35,947 nt of DNA from the NCBI GenBank assembly GCA_031969515.1, contig DALYKF010000031.1:1-35947 (forward strand). The letters run 5' to 3'. This document shows positions 2,708-28,574 of this stretch, one piece after another. The stretch's first letter is position 1, and each line of letters begins with the position of its first letter. The stretch comes from Coleofasciculaceae cyanobacterium CTOTU46641 (lineage in GTDB: Bacteria; Cyanobacteriota; Cyanobacteriia; Cyanobacteriales; Coleofasciculaceae). The notes under the pieces were generated by a model. That model saw nothing but the letters and a program-made list of their open reading frames with translations, was not told the origin of the DNA and did not search any database. The position numbers and the translations under genes are program-made.

Positions 2708-5700
2708 ATGAAACTCAAGACAAAGTTTGTGTCAGGTTTTTTAGGGGTTGCATCTCTAGTAGCCATATTAGGGATTATTAATATTCAAACAAAGAAAAAT
2801 GTTGATGAACAGTTTAATAAAATTACTGAAAGTACTACTCGTCAACTCATTGCCCTAAATCAGGTCAAAGTTGCCTCAGTCATCATGATGAATGAGGTCT
2901 ATAGCTATGCGGTGATTGCGGGAGAATCCAACTCCATTGCTCCTGTCAAGCCAGGGGATTCACCAGCAGAGAAACAACCCAACTTAGACACTATAGAACT
3001 AGAAAAACAGGCAAAAAAAGACAAAGAAGAATTTAATCAGTCAGTAGAAACTATCGATAAATCGTTAGCGGATTTTCAGACCCTTGCTCAAAATCCAGAA
3101 ATGCAGAATGTTTATCGACAACTATTAACCAGTAAAATCCAACTCGCTGAAATCGGTCAAGAAATTTTAGAATTAAAGGGCGAAAAATTTCAAGCCGGGA
3201 ATCTACTTCGCAAACGACAAGAGTTTGAAGCGGCTCAAGAAAAATTTTTAGAAGTTGTTGATCGCGCCATCAGCGTTAACTTAGAAGCGTTAGAACGTGA
3301 AAATATAACCGCTAATCGCAGTGCGACCTATTCTCTAGTTATTAACCTAACATCCGTCACCGTAGTCATTACAATATCGATAATCTTTGGCATACTCTTA
3401 GCAGAAAGAATAACCAATCCCATTATAAAACTCAAAGAAGCTGCTGCAAAGATTGGAGAGGGAGAATTTGATACCATAGTCGAGATCAAAACTCAGGATG
3501 AACTGAGCATTTTAGCTGATGCCTTCAATCATATGGTCAAGCAGCTCCAAGACACAACCGTTTCTAAAACCTATCTCGATAACATTATCAGTTCCTTAAG
3601 TGATGCCCTGATTGTTCTGAATAAAAACATCAAAATTGAAAGCTTCAATGAAGCCGCTTTATATCTTTCCGGATATCAACCCAACGAACTACGCGGTCAA
3701 GCCTTAGATATCTTCTTTAAAGAAGATAATTTTTTAGGCTATTTAGAATCCAATGATTCCCAACCGAATGGATTTCTAGGCAGACGAGAAACAACCTTCT
3801 TTGCCAAAGATGGCATTCAAATTCCCGTCTCCGTCACCGCCTCTGTGATGCAAAATGCAGCAGGCAAAATTCAAGGAATTGTTTGCCTAGTTCAAGACAT
3901 ATCCGCACGCAAACGGGCAGAAGAAGCACTACGCCGACAAGCCCTAATGTTTGAAACCATTTATGATGGCGTGATCCTCACTGATTTAGCAGGTCGAATT
4001 CTGGATTGGAACCCCGCCGCTGAGAGAATATTTGGTTATGAAAAAACCGAAGTATTAGGTAAAACCTGCGGAGTCGTTTACCAACCCGAAGAATCAATAG
4101 TACTAACCCAACAAATGATTTATGGCTTGATGAGTGAAGGACGCTGGACAAGCGAGATTGAATTTAGCCGTAAAGATGGTACTCAAGGAGTTTGCGAAAC
4201 AGTAGTTGTACCCTTACGAGATGAACAAGGTCAACCCATAGCAGCAATTGGCGTAAATCGGGATATTACTGAGCGAAAACAATACGAAAATCAATTAGTT
4301 GAAGCACGAGAAGCTGCCCTAGAAGCTGCACGAGCAAAAGCTCAATTCTTAGCGAATATGAGTCATGAAATCCGCACTCCTATGAACGGAGTTTTGGGAA
4401 TGAGTGAATTACTTTTAACAACTGAACTTAGCGTTCGACAACTTGATTTTGTCAAAACTCTACAGGTCAGTGGCGAACACTTATTAAGAGTAATTAACGA
4501 TATTCTGGACTTCTCCAAACTTGAAGCGGGAGAAATGCGATTAGATAGCGATGAGCTAAACTTAAATCGCTGCTTAGAAGAAGTCTTAGATCTATGCAAT
4601 CCCCAAGCAGATATTAAAGATTTAGAACTAGCCCTTTTAGTCGATACCGACGTACCCCGATACCTCCTCGGAGATGCAGGTCGCCTACGGCAAATTCTCA
4701 CAAATTTAGTCGGCAATTCTATCAAATTTACCGAAACTGGAGATATTGTTATCCACGTATCTGTTGACCCATCCTCCTCAGCAATTGAAGAACTAACCCC
4801 TACAAACAACCAACAACCAATAACCAACGACCAACAACCAATAAAATTACGATTTGCGGTTAAAGATACTGGCATTGGGATTCTTCCAGAAGACAAGAAA
4901 AAGCTATTCCAAGCCTTCTCCCAAGTCGATGCTTCCACCACCCGCAAGCATGGAGGTACGGGGTTAGGTCTAGCCATTTGTAAGCAACTTGTAGAAATAA
5001 TGGGTGGAGAAATTGGCGTGGAAAGTGAACCCGGAATTGGATCTACATTCTGGTTTACGGCAACGTTTATTAAGCTAGCCGTTGACTCCACTAAAGAAGC
5101 TATGAATCAGGCTTATAGCAGCATTCCTGTTTCCCCTGAATTTTTAACTGGAAAGCGAGTATTAGTAGTAGACGATCGCCCCATTAATCGCAAAATTGTC
5201 CAGCATCAATTATCAGCAAAAGGCATGGAAGTGGATGAAGCGGATAATGGCATTATTGCCCTCAACGCGTTACAAGCAGCGGCTGAAGCTGGAAAACCCT
5301 ACGATGTGGCATTACTCGATATGAAAATGCCTAAAATTGATGGGTCAACTCTCGGACGACTGATTCTTGCTGAACCCGATTGGTCGCGTACAAAATTAGT
5401 ATTGATGACCTCCATGCACGCCGGAGATTCTGCTCAACCTTTACTTAAAAGTGGATTTGCTGATTATTTAGTCAAGCCAGTTAAAGAATCCCAATTACTC
5501 GACTCACTGCTGAAAGTACTCGCCTCTGAAGAAGAGACATCAACCCCTAATTCCTCCTCTTCCTTAACATTAGAAGGAGCGCCCCCTAATCAACAACAAG
5601 ACACCAGCTTGAAAATTCTGTTAGTAGAAGATACGCCCATTAACCTCAAATTAGTACAGCATCAGGTGCAACTGTTAGGACATCACTCAGAATTCGCAGA

Positions 5701-7252
5701 AAACGGTCAAGAAGGACTTGATAAATTAGCGCAGAATGACTACGATATCGTGTTAATGGATTGCCAAATGCCTGTGATGGACGGCTACCAAGCAACCCGA
5801 ACCTTGCGCCAACGAGAAGGAACTGATCGCCATACTATTGTCATTGGAATGACCGCTTATGCGATGCAAGGTGATCGCGAAAAATGTTTGGCGGCGGGTA
5901 TGGATGACTACCTCAGCAAACCCGTAATGGTGAAAAATTTAGCACCTGTATTGGAGCGATGGGCAGCCGTTGTTAAGGGAGATTCCTATGTTGAAAAAAG
6001 CAAAAAGTCTGAAACAACTATTACTATCGAACCCTCTATTGCTCCCTCTGTCAATTTAGTGGATTGGGTGCGGCTAAAGGAAATCTCCGAAGGAGATCCC
6101 GCATTTCAACTGGAACTCGTACAAGGATTTATTAAAGAAGGAGCAACATTTATCGCTGAGGCAAAGCAAGCGCTGGTGGATCGAGATTGGGTTATAGTAG
6201 CCAATAAAGCGCACCAAATTAAAGGCGCAAGTTCATCTGTTGCTGTGCAAATTATGCCAGAAGTAGCGGATCAACTCCGCCATCAAGCACTACTCAAAAG
6301 TCCGGAGGGTGCAGGTAAGTTAATCACTCAGTTAGAGCAAATTATAGAGCAACTCAGAGGGCATATTGACCTAAATTCTCCTTCCGTTGGAGACTCATTA
6401 TTAACGAAGGGATCAGCCCTGGTTAGTACTCAATCTGCCAACACAGAACGAGTAAACTCTGAGAAAGAAAAACCGACAACGTTAAATATTCTGTTAGTAG
6501 AAGATACGCCGATTAACCTGAAATTAGTGCAGCATCAAGTCCGCCTCCTTGGTCATCAGTGGGATTCAGCGGAAAATGGTTTAAAAGCCCTTGACAAATT
6601 AGCACTCAATGAGTTTGACCTTGTATTAATGGATTGTCAAATGCCCATTATGGACGGCTACCAAGCCACCCAATTATTACGGCAACGAGAAGGAACAGAC
6701 CGTCATACGGTAGTGATTGGGATGACAGCTTATGCGATGCCAGGCGATCGAGAAAAATGTCTAGCCGCAGGTATGGATGATTACCTCAGTAAACCTGTGA
6801 TGGTAAAAGAATTAAAAGTCATGCTTCAGCGTTGGTCATTTGTTGTAAATGAGGATTTGCAGGCAGAACGGAACAACTCCGGAAGCACGATTGAGAATGA
6901 TTTGGTGGATTGGAATCACTTGCATGAAATCTCTGGGGGAGATCCAGAGTTTCAACTGGAATTGGTGAAAGGATTTGTTAAAGATGGGACAAGTTTTATT
7001 GCCGAAGCCAAGCGAGCGGTGCAACTTCAAGACTGGGTTACTTTAGCAAATAAAGCTCACCAAATTAAAGGAGCGAGTGCTTCAGTAGCCGTGCAATCGA
7101 TGTCCGAATTAGCCCGTCAACTCCATATTCAAGCCAAAGCGAATACTTTGGAAAGTGCGGCTGATTTGGTGACTCAGTTAGAGCAAATTTTGGACGAGTT
7201 GAAATCGTCTGTTGAGAATAAAGTGGCTGCTGTAAAATCAAAATCTACCTGA
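2708..7252 (+). CDS. Hybrid sensor histidine kinase with TM, HAMP, two PAS, HisKA, HATPase, three REC and two HPt domains
   Basis: 1514 aa. Two TM segments flank an approximately 180-aa extracytoplasmic, coiled-coil-rich region. The H-box is MSHEIRTPMNGV. The ATPase has G-boxes (DTGIGI, GGTGLGLAI). Three receiver domains carry DD...D...K signatures (VLVVDDRPINR; ILLVEDTPINLK twice). Two HPt domains carry HQIKGAS. Confidence 0.9.
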   Translation: MKLKTKFVSGFLGVASLVAILGIINIQTKKNVDEQFNKITESTTRQLIALNQVKVASVIMMNEVYSYAVIAGESNSIAPVKPGDSPAEKQPNLDTIELEKQAKKDKEEFNQSVETIDKSLADFQTLAQNPEMQNVYRQLLTSKIQLAEIGQEILELKGEKFQAGNLLRKRQEFEAAQEKFLEVVDRAISVNLEALERENITANRSATYSLVINLTSVTVVITISIIFGILLAERITNPIIKLKEAAAKIGEGEFDTIVEIKTQDELSILADAFNHMVKQLQDTTVSKTYLDNIISSLSDALIVLNKNIKIESFNEAALYLSGYQPNELRGQALDIFFKEDNFLGYLESNDSQPNGFLGRRETTFFAKDGIQIPVSVTASVMQNAAGKIQGIVCLVQDISARKRAEEALRRQALMFETIYDGVILTDLAGRILDWNPAAERIFGYEKTEVLGKTCGVVYQPEESIVLTQQMIYGLMSEGRWTSEIEFSRKDGTQGVCETVVVPLRDEQGQPIAAIGVNRDITERKQYENQLVEAREAALEAARAKAQFLANMSHEIRTPMNGVLGMSELLLTTELSVRQLDFVKTLQVSGEHLLRVINDILDFSKLEAGEMRLDSDELNLNRCLEEVLDLCNPQADIKDLELALLVDTDVPRYLLGDAGRLRQILTNLVGNSIKFTETGDIVIHVSVDPSSSAIEELTPTNNQQPITNDQQPIKLRFAVKDTGIGILPEDKKKLFQAFSQVDASTTRKHGGTGLGLAICKQLVEIMGGEIGVESEPGIGSTFWFTATFIKLAVDSTKEAMNQAYSSIPVSPEFLTGKRVLVVDDRPINRKIVQHQLSAKGMEVDEADNGIIALNALQAAAEAGKPYDVALLDMKMPKIDGSTLGRLILAEPDWSRTKLVLMTSMHAGDSAQPLLKSGFADYLVKPVKESQLLDSLLKVLASEEETSTPNSSSSLTLEGAPPNQQQDTSLKILLVEDTPINLKLVQHQVQLLGHHSEFAENGQEGLDKLAQNDYDIVLMDCQMPVMDGYQATRTLRQREGTDRHTIVIGMTAYAMQGDREKCLAAGMDDYLSKPVMVKNLAPVLERWAAVVKGDSYVEKSKKSETTITIEPSIAPSVNLVDWVRLKEISEGDPAFQLELVQGFIKEGATFIAEAKQALVDRDWVIVANKAHQIKGASSSVAVQIMPEVADQLRHQALLKSPEGAGKLITQLEQIIEQLRGHIDLNSPSVGDSLLTKGSALVSTQSANTERVNSEKEKPTTLNILLVEDTPINLKLVQHQVRLLGHQWDSAENGLKALDKLALNEFDLVLMDCQMPIMDGYQATQLLRQREGTDRHTVVIGMTAYAMPGDREKCLAAGMDDYLSKPVMVKELKVMLQRWSFVVNEDLQAERNNSGSTIENDLVDWNHLHEISGGDPEFQLELVKGFVKDGTSFIAEAKRAVQLQDWVTLANKAHQIKGASASVAVQSMSELARQLHIQAKANTLESAADLVTQLEQILDELKSSVENKVAAVKSKST
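5609..7252 (+). repeat. Internal tandem duplication of a REC-HPt module within the hybrid kinase gene (units about 5609-6360 and 6481-7252)
   Basis: Near-identical protein segments (LKILLVEDTPINLKLVQHQVQLLGH...HQIKGASSSVAVQ versus LNILLVEDTPINLKLVQHQVRLLGH...HQIKGASASVAVQ). The DNA shares long identical runs such as attctgttagtagaagatacgcc. Confidence 0.8.
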
Positions 7253-7394
7253 TACAGCAGTTTTTAAGTTGATGAAGTACAGTGCTGAGTTTTCTTAAGG
7301 AAAACTCTAGTTATACCAATTCCCTAAAAGCGGGCAACAATAAGATTTCGTAGTATTCAAAGCCCCTCCTGAATTGGAAGCACAAAATCTGCAT

Positions 7395-7540
7395 GACGAC
7401 CTGATTAAACGTTGGTTGGTCTACCTGGAGATATGGTGCAAATTCGTAATGGGCAGACGCTTATCAACGGTAAGGCTATTGCAGAACCTGATGTGAAGGA
7501 GAAATCAACTTACAACTATAGACCTGTGACAATACCACCA
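7395..7540 (+). pseudogene. Signal peptidase I (LepB-like) C-terminal fragment, frameshifted and truncated
   Basis: The translation DDLIKRW, then after a frameshift LVGLPGDMVQIRNGQTLINGKAIAEPDVKEKSTYNYRPVTIPP, matches the conserved LepB box (RDYIKRVVGLPGD.V...G.L.ING). It is only a fragment. There are stops upstream, and homology ends at the dispersed repeat at 7552. Confidence 0.45.
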
Positions 7541-7551
7541 AAATCTCTCGG

Positions 7552-7586
7552 CAGTCCGCTCCAACAGGATTGTTATACGCCGTTTC
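7552..7586. repeat. Short dispersed repeat, copy 1 (cAGTCCGCTCCAACaGGATTGTTAtacGCCGTTTC)
   Basis: Two other copies are at 9603-9635 and 18165-18188. Copies 1 and 2 share about 33 nt. Confidence 0.7.
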
Positions 7587-7603
7587 ACCTACGCATCTCA
7601 TCC

Positions 7604-8014
7604 CTAAACTTGAATGATATCAAAGGTATCACGATCGCCAATCCGATAAAACAAGAAGTCAGAATCGAGGGTGAGAATTTGCCGATACCCAGTCTTTTCA
7701 GCCGCCACAACCAGAGTTGCATCTGCCAAATCCATCGGTCTGTCGCGGTATTGCTCCATCAGTGCCAACAAACGGCTGTAATCACTCTCCTGGATCTCGT
7801 AAACTGTCAGCAGTTTGTCTAACAGAAGCTGCCCCAACTGTTTTTGCATTTGCCAGCCGCCACGATGCAGGGCAAGATACATCGCCTCGGTTAGACATGA
7901 CCAAGTTGTGACGAGAGGTTTTGCCAAACGCATCACGGCACTTTTGTAGGCTTTGTGCTGAGGCTGAGTTCGGTCAACGAGGCACAGCAGAACCCCTGCA
8001 TCACACAGGATCAT
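7604..8014 (-). CDS. vapC: PIN-domain toxin (VapC family)
   Basis: 136 aa. Acidic PIN residues are in the right positions (ILCDAGVLL..D; DATLVVAAE; LTLDSDF). It overlaps the upstream small gene by 4 nt. Confidence 0.8.
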   Translation of the reverse strand: MILCDAGVLLCLVDRTQPQHKAYKSAVMRLAKPLVTTWSCLTEAMYLALHRGGWQMQKQLGQLLLDKLLTVYEIQESDYSRLLALMEQYRDRPMDLADATLVVAAEKTGYRQILTLDSDFLFYRIGDRDTFDIIQV

Positions 8015-8271
8015 AGCTCTAGCCCTTGTTGCCGATACTTGTTGAGCAGGAGTTGTTGATAGTTGCTGGCTGGTTCAGGTGGAGTTACATCTAGGCGATC
8101 AACTGCTTCAAACCATTTTGACCATGCACCTACAAGCGTTTCATCAGGCTGACTATCAGTAATTTCAGCTTGATGCTTGTGAATGACAAAATCAATAAAG
8201 TCACTTACTTGCTGTAAAAGTGGTTCGGAAAGTTGCTGTAATTTAGCAATAGCGGTGTCACGAATGGTCAT
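8011..8271 (-). CDS. Type II antitoxin (DUF2281-like) partner of VapC
   Basis: 86-aa ORF with start/stop overlap ATGA with vapC. The motif LLQQVSDFIDFVIHKHQ resembles DUF2281 antitoxins. Confidence 0.65.
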   Translation of the reverse strand: MTIRDTAIAKLQQLSEPLLQQVSDFIDFVIHKHQAEITDSQPDETLVGAWSKWFEAVDRLDVTPPEPASNYQQLLLNKYRQQGLEL

Positions 8272-8696
8272 AAAAGCACCTCTTTTTCAGCGTCACTCTC
8301 TTTGTACAGAACAGTTTACAAACCCTGTCTCCAATTTCTAACTAGAAATAACAGATTTAAACTGAGCCTATGGGAGCACAAAGCTTACATATTTCAACAC
8401 TAGATAAGATTCACCAGGAATAATGAGACTCTGAATAATCTGGTTGGAATCCATATCCAGGCACCCAAACATCTCCAGGTTACCACTCAGTATCATTATC
8501 TTTGTTCTCATCAGGTTTAACTTCATCAGTTTTATCTATTTGAGTAAGCTGTTGCACTTCCAAGCTCTGTTTTAACGACCAAGCTCACCGGACGCAGACA
8601 ACATTTGCAACCCAACTAACCAAATCGCAGCGTTCCGGTGCAGCGACTTGTTAGCTTGCGACTGAATACATGAAGATTTACGTATACCGATTAAAA

Positions 8697-9338
8697 CTAC
8701 TTTCGACCAAAATCTGCCGGAATTTCTCCCCAAGCAGCAGTATTCCACTTAAGTATAGGATTAGTATAGTCGTTATTCTCCAGCCAGGTTAACGCTCGGT
8801 CAACTAGATTGAATATCTCCTCACTATCTTCATTTCTCTTCAACTTTGTTTTTACTTTTCGGTTTTTCACCCAAAGAATTGCTGTTTCTGAATCAGAATA
8901 TATAGGTATGTCCTTCTCCTGATTCTTTAAATATGCGAGAGCATGAACGATTGCTAAGAACTCCCCAATATTATTAGTTCCGTGAGGTATCGGACGTTTT
9001 TGAAAAAGCACTTCATGTGTTGCCGTGTGAACGCCTTTATATTCGACAGCACCAGGATTGCCTGAACAAGCAGCATCGACACAGACACTATCCATAATAA
9101 CTACGTCTGTAGATGAAGTAATTGTTTTTGTAGGTTTTCGTTTCTTCTTTTCAGGCTCTTTAGGAAATACTGAAGTCTGTCTCGCAGCTTCTAATGCTTC
9201 TTCCGCCTCACCTCTGGTTTTGAAGGACTTATATAGCGCACCACTAAAACCTGTGATTTGTTCTTCACATTCCTGCCAAGTTGAAAATATTCCTGTCTTC
9301 CTACCCTTAAAAACAGCGTAGTATTTCTTAGATGCCAT
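8697..9338 (-). CDS. RNase H1-type ribonuclease with N-terminal Cauli_VI/hybrid-binding domain
   Basis: 213 aa. The N-terminus YYAVFKGRKTGIFSTWQECEEQITGFSGALYKSFKTRGEAEEAL is a caulimovirus-viroplasmin-like domain. It is followed by an RNase H core with VDAACSGNPG, GEFLAIVHAL and YSDSETAI catalytic motifs. Confidence 0.75.
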   Translation of the reverse strand: MASKKYYAVFKGRKTGIFSTWQECEEQITGFSGALYKSFKTRGEAEEALEAARQTSVFPKEPEKKKRKPTKTITSSTDVVIMDSVCVDAACSGNPGAVEYKGVHTATHEVLFQKRPIPHGTNNIGEFLAIVHALAYLKNQEKDIPIYSDSETAILWVKNRKVKTKLKRNEDSEEIFNLVDRALTWLENNDYTNPILKWNTAAWGEIPADFGRK

Positions 9339-9597
9339 GAGATAGAAGCCTATAACTCCACATCATGCTCTCCATAATAAGCAATTAACTCGTACAGGTC
9401 TTCAACATACTTAACAAACTGCCCCATGTTTGCGAGTAAAACACCTTTATCTAAATTTGGTGGTAAATGTGGATGCCCTGCTTCATTACGACATATTCTG
9501 CTGGTCGAGAACCAGGTCATCATCGAAGAAGATAACTTTGAGGAAGGACTGACCCCAGCCCTGATTGCCGATAACCTTGGCTACAACACCAATCAGC

Positions 9598-9846
9598 TTA
9601 GTCAGTCCGCTCCAACCGGATTGTTATGCCGTTTCTTTGCAAATATGGTTGCAATTGCTTACTCTTGCCTATTCCGTTAGCTTGGGCACACTGCCAAACC
9701 ACGCGATCGCTACTATTGACTTCCAACCCTATCTCTTCAAACAGGACAAAGCGAATATAAACTAACTCAAGCCAGCCACTAGCGGCAAGGCTACCTGCTA
9801 AGACAACAGAATGTCCACGTAAATTATGATCAACCAGAACATTCAT
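9598..9846 (-). pseudogene. DUF5615 (Mut7-C/PIN-like toxin) gene, 3'-disrupted
   Basis: MNVLVDHNL...VVWQCAQANG matches the DUF5615 N-terminal half. The last 10 codons are supplied by the dispersed repeat at 9603-9635. Possible remnants of the C-terminus lie in other frames further downstream. It overlaps the DUF433 gene by 4 nt. Confidence 0.5.
9603..9635. repeat. Short dispersed repeat, copy 2
   Basis: See copy 1. The sequence is cagtccgctccaaccggattgttatgccgtttc. Confidence 0.7.
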
Positions 9847-10223
9847 GCCTTTGATTCAAGTTTAGCCCGTTCTGCCCGGAGTTTTGCCCGAATCACTTCC
9901 GTACCTGGTCTAGGGGGTTTTGCAGCAATGTGAGCAACGAGAGCACGATTCTGCTCCTCATAATATTGTCGTAGTTCCTCGGCTTCCTTAAGGACGGCTT
10001 GGTACTCTGCTTCAACCTCGGCACGATGGGCATCAATGTAAGATAGAGCGGAATTAACCTGTTCATCGGTGAGGCTGAGCATGGCACGAATGAACTTTGG
10101 TGGATACTGCTCTGTCACATAGTCCATCACGTCATACAAAGTAATACGGGTTCCTGAAATTGTCAGTCCCCTCTCTGTACGAATGATAGCTGCTTGCCCA
10201 TCAGAATGCGAAGTCATAGCCAT
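9843..10223 (-). CDS. DUF433-domain protein (antitoxin-like partner of DUF5615)
   Basis: 126 aa. ERGLTISGTRITLYDVMDYV is the DUF433 signature. It has a C-terminal coiled-coil tail. Confidence 0.7.
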   Translation of the reverse strand: MAMTSHSDGQAAIIRTERGLTISGTRITLYDVMDYVTEQYPPKFIRAMLSLTDEQVNSALSYIDAHRAEVEAEYQAVLKEAEELRQYYEEQNRALVAHIAAKPPRPGTEVIRAKLRAERAKLESKA

Positions 10224-10445
10224 AACCTTGGAACAGCTAAGTCTATATTACCTCGCCAAAAAACTGATAGGTATGATGTCTACCCACCAGCTTCTAGTTC
10301 CTTTAAAAGTCCTCTAAATACTTGATTTCACGCCTTCTGTTACCAGCAGGGGAAAGTCTTGCCAGTTTCGCTGCTTCAGAGCCATGCGGATTATCTGAAT
10401 AGGCATCCACAACATCAATAGTGCGATCGCTTACACCAGTGAAAA

Positions 10446-10572
10446 CCCAGCCTACGGCGAACTTGCGATAGCGAAGCGCTGCTGCGAAGCGCAGATCGCA
10501 CTGGACAGCACACAAGCGATCGCTCTTCATATTGCTTGTTGGTTGAGAAACTGAGTTACTGCTTCCACTCCC
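10446..10572. repeat. Composite repeat, B-type unit copy B1 (contains HIP1 sites)
   Basis: cctacggcgaacttgcgatagcgaagcgctgctgcgaagcgcagatcgcactggacagcacacaagcgatcgctcttcat...gagaaactgagttactgcttccactc. Related copies are at 11221-11312, 12431-12573 and 13379-13402. Confidence 0.8.
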
Positions 10573-10589
10573 CTCAACAAAAGGGCTTG

Positions 10590-10778
10590 TTAGCTGGCGG
10601 TTGTATTCAGTAGTAACCATTCTACAAATGCCTCCCGCCCTAGCTCCCCCGATGCGATCGCCAACACCACACGCTCTTGTTCATCTACACAGACGTTAAT
10701 TTCCATTCCATTCAGCACAAGAAAAGTCTCTACGGCAGCATGACCTGTACGTTTGTTTCCATCAGAAACCGCATTATG
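10590..10778 (-). pseudogene. Doc/Fic-family (death-on-curing) toxin remnant, C-terminal half only
   Basis: The translation HNAVSDGNKRTGHAAVETFLVLNGMEINVCVDEQERVVLAIASGELGREAFVEW matches the Doc motif region (HxFx[DN]GNKRT...LNG) and the C-terminus. The frame closes with TAG immediately upstream, and the N-terminal approximately 65 aa are missing. Confidence 0.55.
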
Positions 10779-10989: not shown

Positions 10990-11090
10990 GTTTCTGGGTT
11001 AAGTCTAGCATCTACCCCCAATTGGCAGCCTCGTTGTGCAGTCCCAACCCAGGAACGAAGCCAGCTAAGAATCTCCTCGCCTAGGGTTTG

Positions 11091-11312
11091 GTGAAAGGAA
11101 ACGATCGCCCTCTCATTTTATCTTGGCAATCACGTCCACGGTCACAGCCGTCCAGTGCGATCGCGCTTCTAGTTAGTACTGCCAAGAAAAGCGATGCTGG
11201 GTTTCCTTTTGTCAACTCAGCCTACGGCGGTAGGCGATTGCCCTGGACGGCACACAAGCGATCGCTCTTCATATCGCTTGTTGGTTGAGAAACTGAGTTA
11301 TCGTTTCCACTG
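11091..11312. repeat. Composite structured repeat A1+B2 (about 220 bp, imperfect terminal inverted repeats GTGGAAACGAT)
   Basis: The A unit (11091-11220) is almost identical to 13249-13378. The B unit (11221-11312) is related to B1/B3. The A and B arms are partly reverse-complementary (gtccagtgcgatc.gcgcttc). Confidence 0.8.
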
Positions 11313-11339
11313 TGTTGTTAGACCGTGCCTCACGGAACA

Positions 11340-11729
11340 CTACCGATTTACCAATCCTTGCAGTTCACTGATGTCGATATCGAGTCCTTGACGCTTCAGA
11401 TATTGATTCAGATTGATCTGGATGAATAAATCTTTGAGTTCTTCTGCAATCTCTGGGGGTGGACTGCCAGATAATGCCGTTGCGATTAGGCGTTCTGCGG
11501 CTCGTAACTCACCACATTCGATCGCGAGAGATGCAGCGCTACGATGAAGGACAGAGCGAGTGGGTTCAGCATCGAGAACACTAGCAATTAAATTGGCAGC
11601 TTGGGTTTCTTGTTCAAAGGCTTGGCGTGTTAACTGTGCCGCCTGTTCGATCGCACCTCTTAAACGGGCAACTGCCGCTGCTTCGGCTAAATCCATTGCT
11701 TGTTGGTGAAGCGTTTGAATCTGGTTCAT
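11340..11729 (-). CDS. Hypothetical alpha-helical protein (129 aa), downstream gene of a two-gene cassette
   Basis: Ala/Gln-rich helical ORF. It overlaps the upstream 189-aa gene by 4 nt. No recognisable motif. Confidence 0.5.
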   Translation of the reverse strand: MNQIQTLHQQAMDLAEAAAVARLRGAIEQAAQLTRQAFEQETQAANLIASVLDAEPTRSVLHRSAASLAIECGELRAAERLIATALSGSPPPEIAEELKDLFIQINLNQYLKRQGLDIDISELQGLVNR

Positions 11730-12295: not shown

Positions 12296-12430
12296 AACGG
12301 TGTTGCCCTATAGAAACTAGAGGCTCAATTTTACTTGCGATCGCTACAGCTTGAGTCGCTGGCAATAATTTTGCCTTGATTGCCTTCTTCGACTTGGGGG
12401 CACGCCTGAAACTCATAAATCTCGTCGCCC

Positions 12431-12573
12431 CAACCTACGGCGAACTTGCGATAGCGAAGCGCTGCTGCGTTCGCCCTTGGCGTTGCCGAAGGCTAGCGCA
12501 GATCGCACTGGACGGCACACAAGCGATCGCTCTTCATATCGCCTACTGGTTGAGAAACTGAGTTACCGCTTCC
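12431..12573. repeat. Composite repeat, B-type unit copy B3
   Basis: Near-identical to B1, with a 25-nt insertion (ttcgcccttggcgttgccgaaggcta). Confidence 0.8.
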
Positions 12574-12609
12574 ACTCTCTTCGACGAGACGACTTGTTAG
12601 CTGACGGCG

Positions 12610-12999
12610 CTACTCCAGACACTGAAATCCCTTTTCCCCCTTCAATTTGCCATCGAAGCTTACGGTTTGTGTGCAACCCGCCTGTCGAGATACCGCCCCA
12701 ATCAAATAGTCAGAGAAATCAGCCTTGCCCTGCTTGTATCGCTGTAGAGCCTGGTCAATCGTTGAGCGGTTTTCAAATTCAAAAGCCGCACTATGCAACA
12801 TGGACTCCAGGACACTGACGATCTCGTCTTTATGAAAGCCATAATTTGCGCCCCTAAGTACCCAAACCAACTCACACAGAACGATATTGGTGATAAAGCA
12901 AGGCTGATTCTGCTGAATGACTGTAACGGCTTGTTGCCATTGCTGCTCATCATCTCTGGTGAGGTATCGAACGAGGATGTTGGTATCAAGTCCAATCAT
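12610..12999 (-). CDS. vapC: PIN-domain toxin (VapC family)
   Basis: MIGLDTNILVRYL is the PIN N-terminal motif. The likely start is the internal Met at 12999; the ORF track extends to 13020. It overlaps the antitoxin gene. Confidence 0.75.
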   Translation of the reverse strand: MIGLDTNILVRYLTRDDEQQWQQAVTVIQQNQPCFITNIVLCELVWVLRGANYGFHKDEIVSVLESMLHSAAFEFENRSTIDQALQRYKQGKADFSDYLIGAVSRQAGCTQTVSFDGKLKGEKGFQCLE

Positions 13000-13231
13000 T
13001 CGCGCCCTCGGAAATGGCAATTTCCATATCCTCGAGGGAAGCTCGTTGAATGTTGGGTCGATGGAGAATGCCGGATAGGGTTTCTACGGCAACATTGAGG
13101 GGAAAAATTTTGACTTGACCTTCGTTGTCAATCACAAACTCGACTCGGCTACCGCTTACCAGCTTGAGATGCTGCCGAATTTCTTCAGGCAGGGTAATTT
13201 GTCCGGTATCGGTAACTGTTGTACTGAGCAT
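12986..13231 (-). CDS. vapB: AbrB/MazE/SpoVT-type antitoxin (VapB)
   Basis: 81 aa. TGQITLPEEIRQHLKLVSGSRVEF is a swapped-hairpin AbrB-type DNA-binding motif. It is immediately 5' of the PIN gene. Confidence 0.7.
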   Translation of the reverse strand: MLSTTVTDTGQITLPEEIRQHLKLVSGSRVEFVIDNEGQVKIFPLNVAVETLSGILHRPNIQRASLEDMEIAISEGANDWT

Positions 13232-13248
13232 AGTTAGGGTGACTGCAA

Positions 13249-13402
13249 GTGAAAGGAAACGATCGCCCTCTCATTTTATCTTGGCAATCACGTCCACGGT
13301 CACAGCCGTCCAGTGCGATCGCGCTTCTAGTTAGTACTGCCAGAGAAAAGCGATGCTGGGTTTCCTGTTGTCAACCCAGCCTACGACGAGCTTGCGATCG
13401 CA
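13249..13402. repeat. Composite repeat A2 plus truncated B unit
   Basis: It matches 11091-11225 with about 4 mismatches over 130 nt, followed by cctacgacgagcttgcgatcgcac. Confidence 0.8.
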
Positions 13403-13486
13403 CTTTTTTTCTAGCGATCGCTTGACAATTAAGACAGTTGCTACAAGATTAAAATCATATTTTTCCTATTACAAGACAGCAAGATT

Positions 13487-13693: not shown

Positions 13694-14257
13694 TTAAACA
13701 TCAAATCCATACCTCTCTTTCAAAAAAGCTCTTGTTTTTTCGTCAGGACTTTCCCCATAGCAAGAAGCAACAACTTCTCCATAATCTTCTAAATCAATTG
13801 ACTCAGTTGAATTTAATGCTTGTAGGAATCTTTGTTCAGCAGAAGGATGGATGAGGACAAAATAATATGCCCAACGTCCAGTACTGTCTTTAGCTTTAAG
13901 CTTATGAATTAAATGACCTCGACTTGCAATATGCCGATTAAGATAAGTATCGCCATCAGATGAGGTCGTGCTGTTTCCTTGATTCTTTTCCTGCTCCCAT
14001 TGTTCTAGTTGTAGGAGTGCATGATTGACTGCATCTCGAACCTGATTATTCTCATGCTCCTTCATATTTTCAAGAATTTTCTTCCCTTCAAGGTTTTCCA
14101 CTCCTGCCAATGTATAGGCATAGGCATCAAGGTCAATTTGTTCCCCCTTGCCAAGATTAAGCTGATCCCGAAGAGCATTCACATCTCCCATCCCAACTAA
14201 GGCGAGGAGACAACGGGCGTGCAAGTCATAACCACTGATGTTCTTCTTTGCCATCAT
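13694..14257 (-). CDS. Hypothetical protein with N-terminal HEAT-like repeat, co-transcribed with the NACHT gene
   Basis: 187 aa. It overlaps the NACHT gene stop by 4 nt. The N-terminus resembles a PBS-lyase HEAT repeat (ALVGMGDVNALRDQL...VRDAVNHALLQL). The C-terminal domain is unknown. Confidence 0.55.
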   Translation of the reverse strand: MMAKKNISGYDLHARCLLALVGMGDVNALRDQLNLGKGEQIDLDAYAYTLAGVENLEGKKILENMKEHENNQVRDAVNHALLQLEQWEQEKNQGNSTTSSDGDTYLNRHIASRGHLIHKLKAKDSTGRWAYYFVLIHPSAEQRFLQALNSTESIDLEDYGEVVASCYGESPDEKTRAFLKERYGFDV

Positions 14258-17004
14258 TCATCTCCTTTGCTATTGATTGAAGTGTTTATGATTTGTGTTA
14301 AGGATGATATGACTTGTTCGCCTCCGATCAATGTTAAATAGACCAAAGCTTCATCTCGATCTTCATTGGTTAGCAAATCATCCTGAAAGGCTTTTAGCAG
14401 TGGTTCTATCATTTCGGGGACAAAACAGCCTAATCGACCCATTGCGATCGCGACTAATTGCTTAGGGCTTTCCGGGATATCTGAAGTAATGAGAGATTGT
14501 AGAACTTGAGTATCCTGCGGACGGTGAATCGGCGTAATCAGGGGTAAATCTTTGTGGGGCTTTCTTCCATCTGCAACAGTTGCCCACTGCCTAATCCAGT
14601 CATCAACTTGATTAAAGACAAGCGTTTCAGTTCCACAAACACTCAAAATCAAAGCCGCCCACGTTCGAGAATAGGCATCGCGCCTATCATCTGTTACAAT
14701 TTGCCGTAAGACCTCAAGTTCTTCTTCATTAAAGCGGTAAGCTGTATAGGTGTGGCATGTCTTGGCGCTTGTTAACCATCCCAAAGCCCACAGCACTGCA
14801 AATGAAATAGCCTCATGTTCGCCGCTCTCCTTTGCGGTTTCCAACAATAAGCCTACAGTTTTTGGCAAGAGAGAATCGGGGAGGAAGTCAATCCTGATGT
14901 TAGAGTTCAGTACTTGGGTTCGATAGAATGCGTTCATTAGTTTAAGTGCTGCATCAGCACGGATTTTGATCGAGTTATTATCCTGTAACTTTGTCAAAAG
15001 AGGCTCCAATATCTCGAATGCATTATCCGCGTTAAGCACGTCACCGCTTGTCGTTGCCATCGAGTAAACAGCCCCGATCCTGCTCCGGCGGTTGCCACAG
15101 TATTTTACAAAGCTTTGCAACATCCGTTTTCGGCATCGTTCTGCAAAGCAAGAGCGCATGAGAGAGTACAGAACTTCATCCATGAGTGTGTTCTGTTTTG
15201 TGTTGAACCCATCCAATCTGTTTAGATTATCTGTAGCTGCATCGATGACGGCATCAACGGTTTCACCACTCACATCGGGTTCTTCGACTAGGGTTTGTAG
15301 CGCAAAGATGGATAAAGCACGAGCTTCCCTTTCAGCAGTGAGAGGCGAAGGGAGTAGCATTAACATTGCATCATCAGCAGTGATACCACTTTTTCCGAAT
15401 TTACCGTCTTTTCGACGAGGTAAGGAACCAATACAAAAGCGAATGACTTCCTGCCAATAACCGGCAGTTACAGGTTCTGTTTTTGTTACAAGTCCCCAAA
15501 AATCGACTTTTCTCTCTGCAATTTCAATCTCATGCACTAGCTGGTGCAAGCGCTGTAGAACTTCTACCCCTTCAGAGAAAATACGACCATTCAGTAATGC
15601 CTGGGCTGCAAAATACTCCTGGAACGATTGATGAAAAAATTGGACTTCATCGCAATCCATTTGGTCTCGTATACTAGTTCCTGCAATGGTTAGCAACCCA
15701 ATCTGGCTGAGAACTAAGTCATACCATTCTTCAGGAGAATACCGCTGTATTCTGCTTGTTGCTTTGTTGGCATAAAACTCTTCGATCGCTTCAATCACCT
15801 GTGACTCTTGCCAGTGTTGAGCACCATCCAAGCGCATCTGGTAAGCAAGGTATTCCAGGTGAGGCAGGATTTCATTATTGGGTTTGCTGACATAGCGGTC
15901 GTCCGAAATAGGACGACGTTTAATCATCAAGTCTACTGCTCGACGATAGAAATCTCCCCTCCGATCACGTGGCGAAATACTGTCTTGGAGCGCTAATTGA
16001 GTGATGAGAGTGAGGGGAAATACGTTTTCGCATAGGGTGGCTACTCTGCGGTCACTACAAACAAAAGATTCGAGAGCATTGGATAGAGATGCCTTTCCTA
16101 GAAATTTTGCAAAGTTCTGAGCAAATTCTTTCTTCTCAGAGCCTCTCAGAGGCGCTACATTAATGTGCTTGAAGGAACGCAGTGAGTCTGCGATAGTATT
16201 GAATCCAAAAACTCTAGAGGTGAGAACGATCGGGATTGGTTCATGGATGTTCGCAATCAGTTGAGCAAGCTGCCGTCGTTTCCGACTGGATGGAATTTCA
16301 TCCAGTCCATCGACTAGAAGTAAAACCTGTCCTTCTGACATTTTCTGTTCGAGCAGATCTGTCAGTAAGCGACGAGGCTCATTAGCGTGATAACCCAACT
16401 TTTGTAGTTGATACTCGATTAAATGGCTCAAACTGCACTCAAAGTCAGTGGCTAGCAGATCGCGACAGAATAGAACCACAGGTATCCAAGATTGATCCGG
16501 TAATGCCGCTTGATTTTCAGAGATTCTAGTCGAATCCTCTGTATGCAAAGGTGACAATGGATGCTTATCGAAATAACTATAAGCCAGAAAACGTAGAAGA
16601 GTTGTCTTACCACAACCCGGATCTCCCACGATTACTAATCGGGCTTCTGACGCTAACTGACTACTGATTTTGCAAACGGTTGGCTCTGGTTGTTGCAAGA
16701 GGTGCCGGATCGGCGATCTATCAAAACGCAAGGCACTCGTAAAGCTATCGCGGAATTGCTGATGAACTTGTTCTACATCAGTTGATTCAAGTTGAAAAAT
16801 TTGGCGCAGTGTAGATTGCTCAACCCGTTGGACATTGGTGGTGCTATTCCTGGCTGATGGGTTGTCTTGTTCAACATCTGTTTCAAGAAGAACGGAATCA
16901 GGGCGAGGATCGTAAGTCAGCAGCAATGGTAAATCGATGTATAGATCTTCGATCGGGAAATCGGCTGATCCAACTTGCTGTTGAATCAACAGTCCAACCT
17001 CCAT
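14254..17004 (-). CDS. NACHT-family STAND NTPase with C-terminal HEAT/ARM-like repeats
   Basis: 916 aa. Walker A is LVIVGDPGCGKTTLL. Walker B is VLLLVDGLDEI. An approximately 130-aa N-terminal region of unknown function precedes the NTPase. The C-terminal region is a long helical repeat. Confidence 0.8.
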   Translation of the reverse strand: MEVGLLIQQQVGSADFPIEDLYIDLPLLLTYDPRPDSVLLETDVEQDNPSARNSTTNVQRVEQSTLRQIFQLESTDVEQVHQQFRDSFTSALRFDRSPIRHLLQQPEPTVCKISSQLASEARLVIVGDPGCGKTTLLRFLAYSYFDKHPLSPLHTEDSTRISENQAALPDQSWIPVVLFCRDLLATDFECSLSHLIEYQLQKLGYHANEPRRLLTDLLEQKMSEGQVLLLVDGLDEIPSSRKRRQLAQLIANIHEPIPIVLTSRVFGFNTIADSLRSFKHINVAPLRGSEKKEFAQNFAKFLGKASLSNALESFVCSDRRVATLCENVFPLTLITQLALQDSISPRDRRGDFYRRAVDLMIKRRPISDDRYVSKPNNEILPHLEYLAYQMRLDGAQHWQESQVIEAIEEFYANKATSRIQRYSPEEWYDLVLSQIGLLTIAGTSIRDQMDCDEVQFFHQSFQEYFAAQALLNGRIFSEGVEVLQRLHQLVHEIEIAERKVDFWGLVTKTEPVTAGYWQEVIRFCIGSLPRRKDGKFGKSGITADDAMLMLLPSPLTAEREARALSIFALQTLVEEPDVSGETVDAVIDAATDNLNRLDGFNTKQNTLMDEVLYSLMRSCFAERCRKRMLQSFVKYCGNRRSRIGAVYSMATTSGDVLNADNAFEILEPLLTKLQDNNSIKIRADAALKLMNAFYRTQVLNSNIRIDFLPDSLLPKTVGLLLETAKESGEHEAISFAVLWALGWLTSAKTCHTYTAYRFNEEELEVLRQIVTDDRRDAYSRTWAALILSVCGTETLVFNQVDDWIRQWATVADGRKPHKDLPLITPIHRPQDTQVLQSLITSDIPESPKQLVAIAMGRLGCFVPEMIEPLLKAFQDDLLTNEDRDEALVYLTLIGGEQVISSLTQIINTSINSKGDE

Positions 17005-17553: not shown

Positions 17554-17702
17554 ACGGTTTAAGGAATAGAGGTCACGTTATCTGTTCTACACTATTGCTG
17601 TCGCAACATCCATTGTCTTGCTAATCGTCTCATCTAAACTTGTGCTTTTGAATACCAAAAGACGAATTTTCAGCTACACCCTACCGGGACATGAAGCAAC
17701 AT

Positions 17703-17769
17703 AACTATTATTAGACAGAAACTTTCCGCCTAAGATCCCATAGTGGGTGGATAGGCAGAATGATTCAGC
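17703..17769. repeat. 67-bp direct repeat, left copy, bounding the PanA islet
   Basis: aactattattagacagaaactttccgcctaagatcccatagtgggtggataggcagaatgattcagc. It matches 19422-19488 with about 7 mismatches. Confidence 0.8.
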
Positions 17770-17879: not shown

Positions 17880-18120
17880 GGGCAGGTTTCTGCTTCGACA
17901 CAAAATCAAGCCCTCAGTGCCTTGCTATTTCTCTATCGTGAAGTACTCAATCTTAACATGGCAGGCATTGATGCTGTTCGAGCCAAAGGACCTCAGTCTG
18001 TGCCAACCGTGTTGACCAAATAGGAAGCGATCGCAGTAATCCAACAGTATGTCATTGGTCGTGCGGTTCTACAAATTTATCCTCTTACGCACTTTCAGGG
18101 TCTGTTTTGATGGTGAAGTT
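17880..18120 (+). pseudogene. Possible degraded tyrosine recombinase/integrase fragment
   Basis: The translation ALSALLFLYREVLNLNMAGIDAVRAKGPQSVPTVLTK*EAIAVIQQY loosely fits the integrase patch LLY.TGLR.SEL..L...D.D.....V.R.KG.K.R.VPL. It has an in-frame stop and is weakly supported. Confidence 0.25.
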
Positions 18121-18164
18121 GAGCGGCTGTAAGCAAGCTCTGTATCTACACCAAGAGCTTTTAG

Positions 18165-18188
18165 AAGTCCGCTCCAACCGAATTGTTA
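18165..18188. repeat. Short dispersed repeat, copy 3 (agtccgctccaaccgaattgttag)
   Basis: It shares its core with copies at 7552 and 9603. Confidence 0.6.
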
Positions 18189-18264
18189 GACAGAGTAATT
18201 TAAAGCATCTTATGAAAGAATAAAATCTATAAATGGAGCGAAACGTATTGAATGAGACTTACAC

Positions 18265-18879
18265 TCAAGGTACTGGATATATTTTGTGATACCTTTCCCA
18301 CCAAACCAAATAAAAATGCCCTTGTAGCTTTATACCCCAAGCTCTGATGGTATTAGCAAATCTAAACCGAAAAGCCGTATCGTATTCTTCTAAACCGATT
18401 TCGATCCACCTATCCTGAGCTTCTTGCACCAAAGTAGTTAGCTCTTGATGGTGATGCTTAGGTACAGTTTTACCACCCTTAGCAGGTGTTTTTTGCTCAA
18501 ATAAGATTTCAGACCAAGTTGATTTTTCCAACAAACTAAAATTTGGAAGTATTTGGGTTTGCCATTCTTCCTCAGTCCAACATCTTTGTTCTCGCCATGA
18601 CCACTCTCCTTCCAAGTCAGACACAGTAGTACACCAAGTCAAGTTACAAGTTATTGCAAATGATTCTTCGCTAGGAAGATATAAAGACTTATTTTTACTT
18701 GGCTCTTCCTGAACCTTAACGACCTTCAAGGAAAGTTCAGGTATTGGCGCTATTTTCACAGTTTTGGTTACCAAATTTTCCACGCTAGACGAAAATCTTA
18801 CCGACTTTGCCTTGCGTGCCTGAGCTTTTTCTTCTTGCCTTTGCTTCCTTCTCTCAGCTTTGGAAGGTTTATCCGTCAT
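18265..18879 (-). CDS. Hypothetical protein (204 aa), candidate toxin partner of the Panacea-domain antitoxin
   Basis: Overlaps the upstream PanA-like gene by 4 nt. It has a basic N-terminus (KAERRKQRQEEKAQARKAK) and a Trp-rich C-terminal domain. No known family recognised. Confidence 0.55.
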   Translation of the reverse strand: MTDKPSKAERRKQRQEEKAQARKAKSVRFSSSVENLVTKTVKIAPIPELSLKVVKVQEEPSKNKSLYLPSEESFAITCNLTWCTTVSDLEGEWSWREQRCWTEEEWQTQILPNFSLLEKSTWSEILFEQKTPAKGGKTVPKHHHQELTTLVQEAQDRWIEIGLEEYDTAFRFRFANTIRAWGIKLQGHFYLVWWERYHKIYPVP

Positions 18880-19310
18880 AGGCTCGAATAATATTCATGC
18901 ATTGCAGCTAAGGGGATAACCTTATCACACCTCTCTGTAGGTTTCAGGTCGCCTCTAGCGTCTTTCCAAGGAGACTCCATATGAGTTAACTCACTTAACC
19001 ACTGCCCACTCTTGTCTTGGAGTGCCTCTAGAACTTTGTCAATAGAGTCTTGTTGATTGGGGGTTAAAGCATCAATGTCCCCATCAGCAAAGGTATCTTT
19101 ATTAACCTTAAATTGATCTCGATGATACCCATACAGAATAGGTACTACAGGACCATTCGCCCAAGCCTGAATATCTTCGTCAAACAAGGGGCTTTCATCC
19201 CAAACAAGAGACCAAGCTTGACTGTAATAAACAAGCTTTTGAAGCTTCATCGCAGTCATTTCGCCTGTTTTAGTTAGGATATATTTCGCCACATCCACAG
19301 CACGTGCCAT
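18876..19310 (-). CDS. Panacea-domain (DUF4065, PanA/SocA-like) antitoxin
   Basis: 144 aa. KLQKLVYYSQAWSLVWDESPLFDEDIQAWANGPVVPILYGYH matches the DUF4065 core (LQKLLYfaqgw...lf.e.feAW.hGPVvp.vY). Confidence 0.75.
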   Translation of the reverse strand: MARAVDVAKYILTKTGEMTAMKLQKLVYYSQAWSLVWDESPLFDEDIQAWANGPVVPILYGYHRDQFKVNKDTFADGDIDALTPNQQDSIDKVLEALQDKSGQWLSELTHMESPWKDARGDLKPTERCDKVIPLAAMHEYYSSL

Positions 19311-19421
19311 GTTGTCCCCCTTGTAGCTTTTAGCGAGCTAATAAACAATTATAGCATACTAGATCGTTTGTACTGCAATGCTGAGTGGATTATGGTTGCT
19401 GCTCAAAACCTTGCTCTGTTT

Positions 19422-19488
19422 AACTATTATTAGACTGAAAATTTCCCCCTAAGATCCAATAGTGGGTGGATATGCAGAACAATTCAGC
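19422..19488. repeat. 67-bp direct repeat, right copy
   Basis: aactattattagactgaaaatttccccctaagatccaatagtgggtggatatgcagaacaattcagc. It lies immediately 3' of the major vault protein gene stop. Confidence 0.8.
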
Positions 19489-23657: not shown

Positions 23658-24005
23658 TTTTGTTGTTGGTTGTTAGTTGTTAGTTGTTAGTTGTTAGTTG
23701 TTGGTTGTTGGTTGTTAGTTGTTAGTTGTTAGTTGTTAGTTGTTAGTTGTTGGTTGTTGGTGATTTGTTTTTAACCAATTTACCCAATTACTAACACTCC
23801 CACCCCCACTCCCCACTCCCCACTCCCCATTTGGTTGTTAGTTATTATATTATTTTCTAAATGCCTGCTACACATTAATCGCCGCGTCTTCGACTCTCCG
23901 CGTCATCAGCATCTATAGCGAACATAAATAAAATTAGTATTAGTCGAACACCAAACAGCAAACAACAAACAACCAACAACCAACAACCAACAACCAACAA
24001 CAAAA
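23658..24005. repeat. STRR heptamer array with a large inverted-repeat organisation between the two M16 genes
   Basis: (A/G)GTTGTT units occur about 14 times at 23660-23760. CCCCACT repeats occur at about 23800-23835. AACAACC/CAACAAC units occur at 23950-24003 and are the reverse complement of the first block. Confidence 0.8.
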
Positions 24006-27599: not shown

Positions 27600-27768
27600 G
27601 TTTTAATGGGGAGTGGGGAGTGGGGAGTGGGGAGTGGGGAGGGGGAGAGAGGGGGAAGACGAAGGGGGACGTGGAGACAAATAACCAACAACTAACAACC
27701 AACAACTAACAACTAACAACTAATAACTAACAACTAAAAACCAACAACCAACAACCAACAACAGACAG
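27600..27768. repeat. STRR heptamer block (GGGGAGT then AACAACT/AACAACC units) ending at the regulator start codon
   Basis: ggggagtggggagtggggagtgggga, then ccaacaactaacaaccaacaactaacaa, then ccaacaaccaacaacagacag ATG. Confidence 0.8.
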
Positions 27769-28449: not shown

Positions 28450-28574
28450 GAGGGGAGTTAGGGGGAGTGGGGAAGAGAATTAAGTGTACCTCACCTATTT
28501 GAGAAATGCTATATATTGGTTATTAGTTATTTACAAACAACAAACAACCAACAACAAGCAACAAGCAACAAACC

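Follow-up and report, generated by a model that had tools for sequence, protein, structure and literature searches.

We examined a 35,947-nucleotide (nt) stretch of DNA from Coleofasciculaceae cyanobacterium CTOTU46641 (contig DALYKF010000031.1; hereafter, the window), which contains an accessory islet between a histidine-kinase gene (ending at 7252) and a vault-protein gene (from 19499). A preliminary description had noted a dispersed repeat in this islet, at a remnant of the signal peptidase I gene lepB, at a truncated DUF5615 toxin gene, and near a PanA antitoxin gene. The core of the repeat, AGTCCGCTCCAACNGRATTGTTA, is found on the + strand at 7553, 9604, and 18166. Searching the window for AGTCCGCTCCAACMGGATTGTTA with up to three mismatches gave exactly three matches (7553–7575, 9604–9626, and 18166–18188, the last with one mismatch), whereas none of 100 dinucleotide-preserving shuffles of the window contained a match, and thus none is expected by chance. 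A repeat search of the window likewise grouped the three core copies as a 50-nt family (D8). Rightward of the core, the copies at 7553 and 9604 have ..TTAT(AC)GCCGTTTC in common. The three-copy repeat and the right-hand extension of two of its copies were thus confirmed at the sites first described, although the positions given for them (7552, 9603, and 18165) were off by one, including the preceding base.

The repeat is very probably the arm proximal to the open reading frame (ORF), R''–L'', of integron attC sites, read on the bottom strand, within a decayed array of toxin–antitoxin cassettes. A covariance-model search of the window with filters off (model R1, see below) returned four sites, all on the same strand and each just 3' of − strand genes. 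The sites, the cassette genes, and the associated fragments are as follows.

7334–7540, + strand: pseudogene fragment of lepB (signal peptidase I), an internal part of the gene with a frameshift (TIGR02227, E = 1e-8)
7536–7582, + strand (bottom strand): attC half site 1, comprising part of the loop and the L''–R'' arm (core 7553–7575; R'' box GTTATAC), without R'–L'
7604–8014, − strand: vapC (PIN/VapC), a cassette gene whose attC is the 7553 half site
8011–8271, − strand: vapB/DUF2281 (VapB), a cassette gene together with vapC
8564–8663, + strand (bottom strand): divergent complete attC site (R1 24.8 bits, E = 1e-4; TTTTAAC ... GTTAGCT)
8697–9338, − strand: RNase H cassette gene (Cauli_VI and RNase_H domains; NF046109, E = 5e-89), followed by the 8564–8663 site
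9358–9500 and 9501–9570, + strand: patchwork filler of 143 bp of unknown origin and a 70-bp xisI fragment
9571–9631, + strand (bottom strand): attC half site 2, comprising most of the loop and the L''–R'' arm (core 9604–9626; R'' box GTTATGC)
9598–9846, − strand: truncated DUF5615 toxin ORF, of which only 9671–9846 (about 58 codons) is homologous
9843–10223, − strand: DUF433 antitoxin (PF04255), partner of DUF5615
17883–18047, + strand: intI (integron integrase) pseudogene fragment (TIGR02249, E = 5e-12; about residues 60–112 of a 315-position profile)
18046–18110, + strand: C-terminal tail of lepB (ending in YVIGRAVLQIYPLTHFQGLF and a stop), adjoining the full attC site at its R' box
18098–18198, + strand (bottom strand): full-length attC site of the PanA cassette (R1 73.6 bits, E = 1e-18)
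18265–18879, − strand: toxin partner of PanA, a gene of the PanA cassette, followed by the 18098–18198 site
18876–19310, − strand: PanA/SocA antitoxin (NF047745)

The copy at 18166, which had been taken for a shorter form, is in fact the only one of the three with a complementary arm. The site to which it belongs forms a DNA hairpin (−14.1 kcal/mol) whose bulges lie in the 3' arm, and its R' triplet is changed (TAAC to TGAT). The site at 8564–8663, between the RNase H and vapBC cassettes, has the same layout when aligned by hand (a bulged T, 6 bp, and a bulged C), and two closely related loci, L041 and L042, retain it.

Sites and arrays across genomes

In a scan of one genome per species, the 22-mer GTCCGCTCCAACNGRATTGTTA had exact matches at 40 loci. 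Almost all of these are in cyanobacteria, which span very different orders and include Nostoc, Microcystis, Leptolyngbyaceae, and Candidatus Cyanaurora; cyanobacterial orders have this cassette arm in common. When the flanks were aligned, 34 of the 44 occurrences at these loci proved to form the 3' arm of an imperfect palindrome about 100 nt long, with the consensus GCnGnCTAAC-GTT-CCGGTTGAGCGGC...(about 40 nt)...G-T-CCGCT-C-CAACCGG-ATT-GTTAGACnGC. The proposed pairing held in 81.8% of the cells of the alignment, compared with 25–42% when the partners were slid. The covariance model R1 recovered further, non-identical copies. Among 50 copies found with the model, compensatory changes occurred in 18 of 25 pairs (129 cells), which none of 500 shuffles reached, and the pairs of the AAC/GTT triplet were essentially invariant (50/50, 50/50, and 48/50). 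Complete copies fold as DNA hairpins of −14 to −22 kcal/mol.

On an attC site's bottom strand, the R' box reads RYYYAAC and the R'' box GTTRRRY, extrahelical bases with a distal T are located on the L'' arm, a 6-bp stem lies between the first and last bulge, and the loop is variable (PMC5027507). The flanks of our consensus (GNCTAAC...GTTAGNC) fit these R' and R'' boxes; the bulged T (G-T-CCGC), a 6-bp stem, and then a bulged C or G all lie on one arm (L''); and the loop of about 40 nt is poorly conserved. The sites, at about 100 nt, also lie within the published attC length range of 57–141 bp. They thus resemble the attC sites of integrons (59-base elements, and the Vibrio cholerae repeats of sedentary chromosomal integrons) in length, in both boxes with the invariant AAC/GTT, and in the bulged, covarying hairpin, and further in that one site follows each cassette at its 3' side, all sites of an array are co-oriented, and sequences are homogeneous within a taxon. 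Integrons have been reported in Cyanobacteria (PMC4889954), and a Cyanobacteria-specific attC covariance model has been published (Ghaly et al. 2021, PMC8352920). A phylum-wide attC sequence and structure is also what we observed, the 22-mer arm being identical in about 40 species, and our sites are probably the same as those of the published model.

Same-strand arrays of two to six sites, spaced 286–3393 bp apart, were found at 16 loci (e.g., L008, L012, L017, L019, and L040). The longest ORF between neighboring sites ran opposite to the model strand, that is, on the top strand, in 29 of the 36 spacers of these arrays. Because of this orientation and the positions of the bulged bases, the + strand of the window is the bottom strand, and the − strand is therefore its cassette (top) strand. 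The converse assignment, with the + strand as top strand, was ruled out on the same two grounds.

Several further occurrences deserve mention in their own right. Relatives of the 8564–8663 site are present on plasmids of Nostoc, Chroococcidiopsis, and Kovacikia; for example, the megaplasmid pn1 of Nostoc sp. UHCC 0926 (L054) carries same-strand sites at 6890–6987 and 8997–9096; these are 2.1 kb apart, and the DNA there is unannotated. A 2.5-kb contig from a Blastocatellia metagenome-assembled genome (MAG) of the Acidobacteria (L016) has a full site (67.7 bits) at 1503–1601, which therefore reflects either cassette sharing across phyla or a binning error. A cyanobacterial-type arm without the other arm, at 6082–6103 of L024 (an Acidoferrum MAG, Acidobacteria), may be a chance match, about 0.5 matches being estimated by chance in the collection.

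Integrase remnants and comparison with known integrons

The intI fragment of the window (about 55 codons) matched the intI of a cyanobacterial locus, L044, with 65% identity (tblastn, E = 2e-16). Additionally, an intI pseudogene was found at 5207–5668 of L031, approximately 1.1 kb from a site (TIGR02249, E = 1e-42), and intI fragments were found at L020 and L026. L026 has the PanA cassette genes at 96–97% identity, immediately next to its intI fragment. At all four loci (the window, L020, L026, and L031), the intI remnant is divergent from the cassettes, as is canonical; in the window, these are the − strand cassettes at 7.5–10.2 kb.

The integrase is present only as a fragment, and the array is therefore a decaying chromosomal integron, that is, a cluster of attC sites lacking an integrase (CALIN) with an intI relic. 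The islet is accordingly a known kind of element. As in CALIN described in 2016 (PMC4889954), the attC cluster lacks a functional integrase, an intI pseudogene lies within 10 kb, the cassettes carry genes other than those for antibiotic resistance, and the array contains debris of mobile elements. Nonetheless, the array of the window is more decayed than is typical, since only two of its four sites are full length, one of them with a mutated R' triplet. The window cassettes are mostly toxin–antitoxin modules (vapBC, DUF433/DUF5615, and PanA with its toxin). Toxin–antitoxin modules are known as cassettes of chromosomal integrons, namely the Vibrio superintegrons; here, their genes are co-oriented with the array.

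Several observations weigh against this identification. In the main family, C takes the place of the G that is usual in published sites as the proximal extrahelical base, and the R–L spacer is short or mostly paired (CCGG-type copies). No intact integrase was found beside the sites, every linked intI being a fragment; in the window, where the only intI sequence is such a fragment, no box II motif was present, so that a complete integron, with an intact intI gene and an attI site beside the array, is lacking; attI is not a site that sequence alone reveals. No matching site occurred within 10 kb of intI at the cyanobacterial loci L044 and L045. Moreover, DUF433–DUF5615 pairs in four other genomic contexts had no such site, and the module is therefore not always a cassette. 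Finally, the copies at 7553 and 9604 are only half sites: neither has both arms with the cleavage point between AA and C of the triplet. These two copies are relics of attC and not functional sites.

The integrases themselves appear degraded more widely. The best 120 listed homologues of the IntI fragment are all 144–221 amino acids long, and in the complete genome containing L044, intI (9623–10588) is split into two ORFs with a joint TIGR02249 score of 466 bits; for these reasons, cyanobacterial integron integrases seem to be commonly interrupted or truncated.

The hairpin could alternatively be a structured RNA in the 3' untranslated region, resembling a terminator or a repetitive extragenic palindromic (REP) element and kept for mRNA stability or termination. 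This would fit the position of the sites, always just 3' of co-oriented ORFs, the strong hairpin with its covariation, and the retention of the ORF-proximal arm in the surviving half sites. That retention, however, is partly a matter of ascertainment, as the search pattern was that very arm, and the half sites cannot form a hairpin at all. No T-run follows the hairpin, and the whole window had no Rfam match at the gathering threshold (Rfam holds no attC model). Furthermore, the invariant AAC/GTT and the asymmetric bulges, spaced by 6 bp, point to recognition by an integrase, and intI remnants are adjacent at four loci. We therefore regard an RNA or terminator-like element as very unlikely and retain the attC assignment. 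A scan for tRNA and tmRNA found none in the window; thus, the repeat is not derived from tRNA.

Breakpoints at lepB and DUF5615

The history of the two half sites was traced by comparison with close relatives, loci L041–L043 (96–99.7% identical), which were reached via the intact DUF5615 homologue P0002, and with L026, a further, mosaic relative. The closest relatives of the window are labelled Coleofasciculaceae.

At the first breakpoint, the lepB fragment is 92% identical to 5218–5424 of L026, where the gene runs on to its C-terminus. In the window, lepB homology ends at 7540, where attC-derived sequence begins; it had been described as stopping exactly at the repeat, which is correct for the repeat unit, with the end at this position. 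The junction joins lepB sequence (..gacaataccac) to the attC loop (caaaatctc), and the ACCAC is common with the loop consensus, a microhomology. Half site 1 forms no hairpin when folded. Its counterpart is found in a Leptolyngbyaceae assembly (L012), where the vapBC module (80% nucleotide identity and 90% VapC amino-acid identity) has a complete attC site, to which half site 1 is homologous from 7545 onward. The order in L012 is complete attC, GTTATACGCCGTTTCA, and vapC. Conversely, the whole segment 7272–7578, comprising the lepB fragment and half attC, is absent from L041, where the kinase gene is directly followed by the vapC cassette (the junction is ambiguous by 1 nt). Given the arrangement in L012, the state of the window is the older one and L041 has undergone a further deletion. 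The C-terminal tail of lepB is found in the window at 18046–18110 instead. There, homology to L026 extends only as far as the R' box, beyond which the L' arms differ. This pattern may hint at past integrase activity.

At the second breakpoint, 9358–9670 replaces 1365 bp of L041 and consists of four pieces: 143 bp of unknown origin, the xisI fragment (9501–9570), the attC remainder (9571–9626), and a spacer (9627–9670). The xisI fragment is 98.6% identical to 1182–1251 of L043, which lies inside the xisI gene there, and it replaces the R'–L' arm of half site 2. A degenerate 5' arm considered upstream of the 9604 copy was rejected as spurious, because the stretch is this xisI fragment. With complete sites in L035, L018, L040, and L010, half site 2 has 81–90% identity over their 3' two-thirds.

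Intact DUF5615 homologues have 131 amino acids (PF18480). In the window, the gene breaks at 9670/9671, 44 nt from the repeat, and 223 bp are missing relative to L041 (2878–3100), which takes the C-terminal 72 codons. The 44-nt spacer at 9627–9670 natively follows the DUF5615 stop codon, and the truncated frame reads through it into attC. Thus, the repeat does supply the last codons and the stop of the ORF, as had been noted, but the gene was disrupted by a separate deletion; since this deletion lies directly after the spacer, the repeat is not a marker of the DUF5615 break. As the DUF433–DUF5615 pairs in the four other contexts have no such site, the evidence for an ancestral juxtaposition of the DUF5615 gene and attC is limited to the common 44-nt spacer and the outermost bases of R'' that L041 retains. 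At the position of the half site in the window, L041 contains a 71-amino-acid ORF (3117–3332, ending in ..KGGGKKPKLSAVSLQIWL and a stop), which we take to be like the N-terminal stub of a transposase, judging from helix-turn-helix regions of the IS5 type. This suggests that an insertion sequence (IS) contributed to the loss of attC in the L041 lineage.

Taken as a marker of strain-specific rearrangement, the repeat met expectation: 7272–7578 and 9358–9670 are exactly the segments in which the window differs from its 97–99.7% identical relatives. The proposal that it is a site-specific recombination site of mobile DNA also proved sound, the mobile DNA being integron gene cassettes. The breaks, conversely, do not fall at the recombination point, since the break in both copies lies within the hairpin loop, and the arm that bears the cleavage site is gone.

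The repeat had also been proposed to be the terminus of a transposable element, either a miniature inverted-repeat transposable element (MITE) or the terminal inverted repeat of an IS, whose insertion disrupted lepB and DUF5615. Its dispersed occurrence in an accessory region, its location inside the strain-specific indel segments, and the different, MITE-like repeat nearby (10.4–13.4 kb) all favor such an origin. Yet no target-site duplications are present at 7271/7272, 7578/7579, 9357/9358, or 9670/9671, about 40 nt separates the two arms of the palindrome, which do not lie at the ends of cargo, and the sites form co-oriented arrays, each downstream of ORFs. No transposase is linked to the repeat; its enzyme partner is an integron integrase, of which only pseudogene fragments are left. 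The cut in DUF5615, moreover, is a plain deletion. A transposon end is therefore extremely improbable. That the repeat is a piece of conserved coding sequence copied around, as ORFs reading through it might imply (..NNPVGAD ending the ABC-binding protein of L031, and ..TIRLERTD in the truncated DUF5615), can be practically dismissed, because copies differ by indels of 1–2 nt, not multiples of three, so that the frame varies between copies, because variation follows base-pair covariation and not codon periodicity, and because the ORFs entering the repeat encode unrelated proteins that end inside it.

The analysis shows what the attC sites are and how they are built, as well as the arrays, intI fragments, and junction coordinates; the mechanism proposed for them is as follows. 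From what is established for attC sites, the bottom strand of a complete site would fold into an imperfect hairpin of about 100 nt, a single-stranded substrate for IntI, composed of an R box, in which RYYYAAC pairs with GTTRRRY, a short spacer, an L box bearing two extrahelical bases, and a loop that varies. Reaction of IntI with such a site would excise or insert the cassette upstream of it, and the cassettes of the window (vapBC, RNase H, DUF433/DUF5615, and PanA with its toxin) each have their own attC after the − strand genes. The copies at 7553 and 9604 would then be dead half sites, broken in the loop by illegitimate recombination with loss of the cleavage arm, half site 1 having been joined to the lepB pseudogene at ACCAC and half site 2 to the xisI fragment. 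Deletions or rearrangements with an end in the hairpin loop account best for them, microhomology being seen at one junction, and the breaks probably arose by palindrome-stimulated or microhomology-mediated deletion. With no intact integrase in the window, the cleavage arm missing from two sites, and the triplet of another mutated, the array is probably frozen, with no recombination now.

Half sites make up about one-sixth of the motif occurrences (7553 and 9604 in the window, and those in L001, L007, L010, and L026), and all six are broken within the loop. One could speculate that attC hairpin loops are preferred breakpoints for integrase-independent illegitimate recombination in cyanobacteria, for example, through hairpin cleavage and microhomology joining, but we consider this doubtful. 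If it were true, decaying arrays would actively scramble neighboring genes and leave half-attC scars.

The islet is thus the wreck of a chromosomal integron with mostly toxin–antitoxin cassettes and an integrase relic, and this gives one ordinary cause for the dispersed repeat, the gene fragments, and the differences between strains. It offers a clean example of the decay of a cassette array, with half sites, a mutated cleavage triplet, and deletions relative to near-identical relatives. The result is useful for annotation and leaves the knowledge of integrons unchanged.

Other repeats and genes of the window

A second dispersed repeat family of about 250 nt (D6/D7/D9/D13; 10380–10640, 11060–11400, 12360–12640, and 13220–13440) lies between the toxin–antitoxin modules of the islet. 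Its members are rich in GCGATCGC (HIP1), and their inverted ends (GTGAAAGGAAACGAT...ATCGTTTCCAC) and internal inverted repeats give them a MITE-like look. L026 contains many copies, three of them directly before copies of the lepB fragment. Additionally, a 68-nt direct repeat (90% identical; 17702–17769 and 19421–19488) flanks a 1.7-kb segment that holds the intI fragment, the lepB tail, the full attC site, and the PanA cassette. L043 has a single 68-nt copy, with xisH/xisI in place of this segment, which suggests a replacement or a duplication-mediated rearrangement.

The islet also encodes a 916-amino-acid NACHT-like NTPase with a P-loop (GCGKTT; 14254–17004, − strand) and an overlapping downstream ORF of 187 amino acids (13694–14257, − strand). 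The two may form a defence-type module, and no attC was detected beside the NTPase gene. At the border of the islet, an 899-amino-acid ORF (19499–22198, − strand), whose homologue in L043 has Vault, MVP-shoulder, and related Pfam domains, represents a gene similar to that of the major vault protein in a cyanobacterium.

Heptamer tracts (TTGGTTG/CAACAAC type), typical of filamentous cyanobacteria, and G- or C-rich octamer and nonamer tracts occur at 23645–24016, 27605–27777, 28522–28591, and 2228–2441 and form 90-nt inverted pairs about 3.9 kb apart. At 5572–7194, the 3' end of the gene for a 1514-amino-acid hybrid histidine kinase contains an internal tandem duplication with units of about 300 nt (71–75% identical, spaced 846–873 nt), corresponding to a repeated receiver–HPt module.

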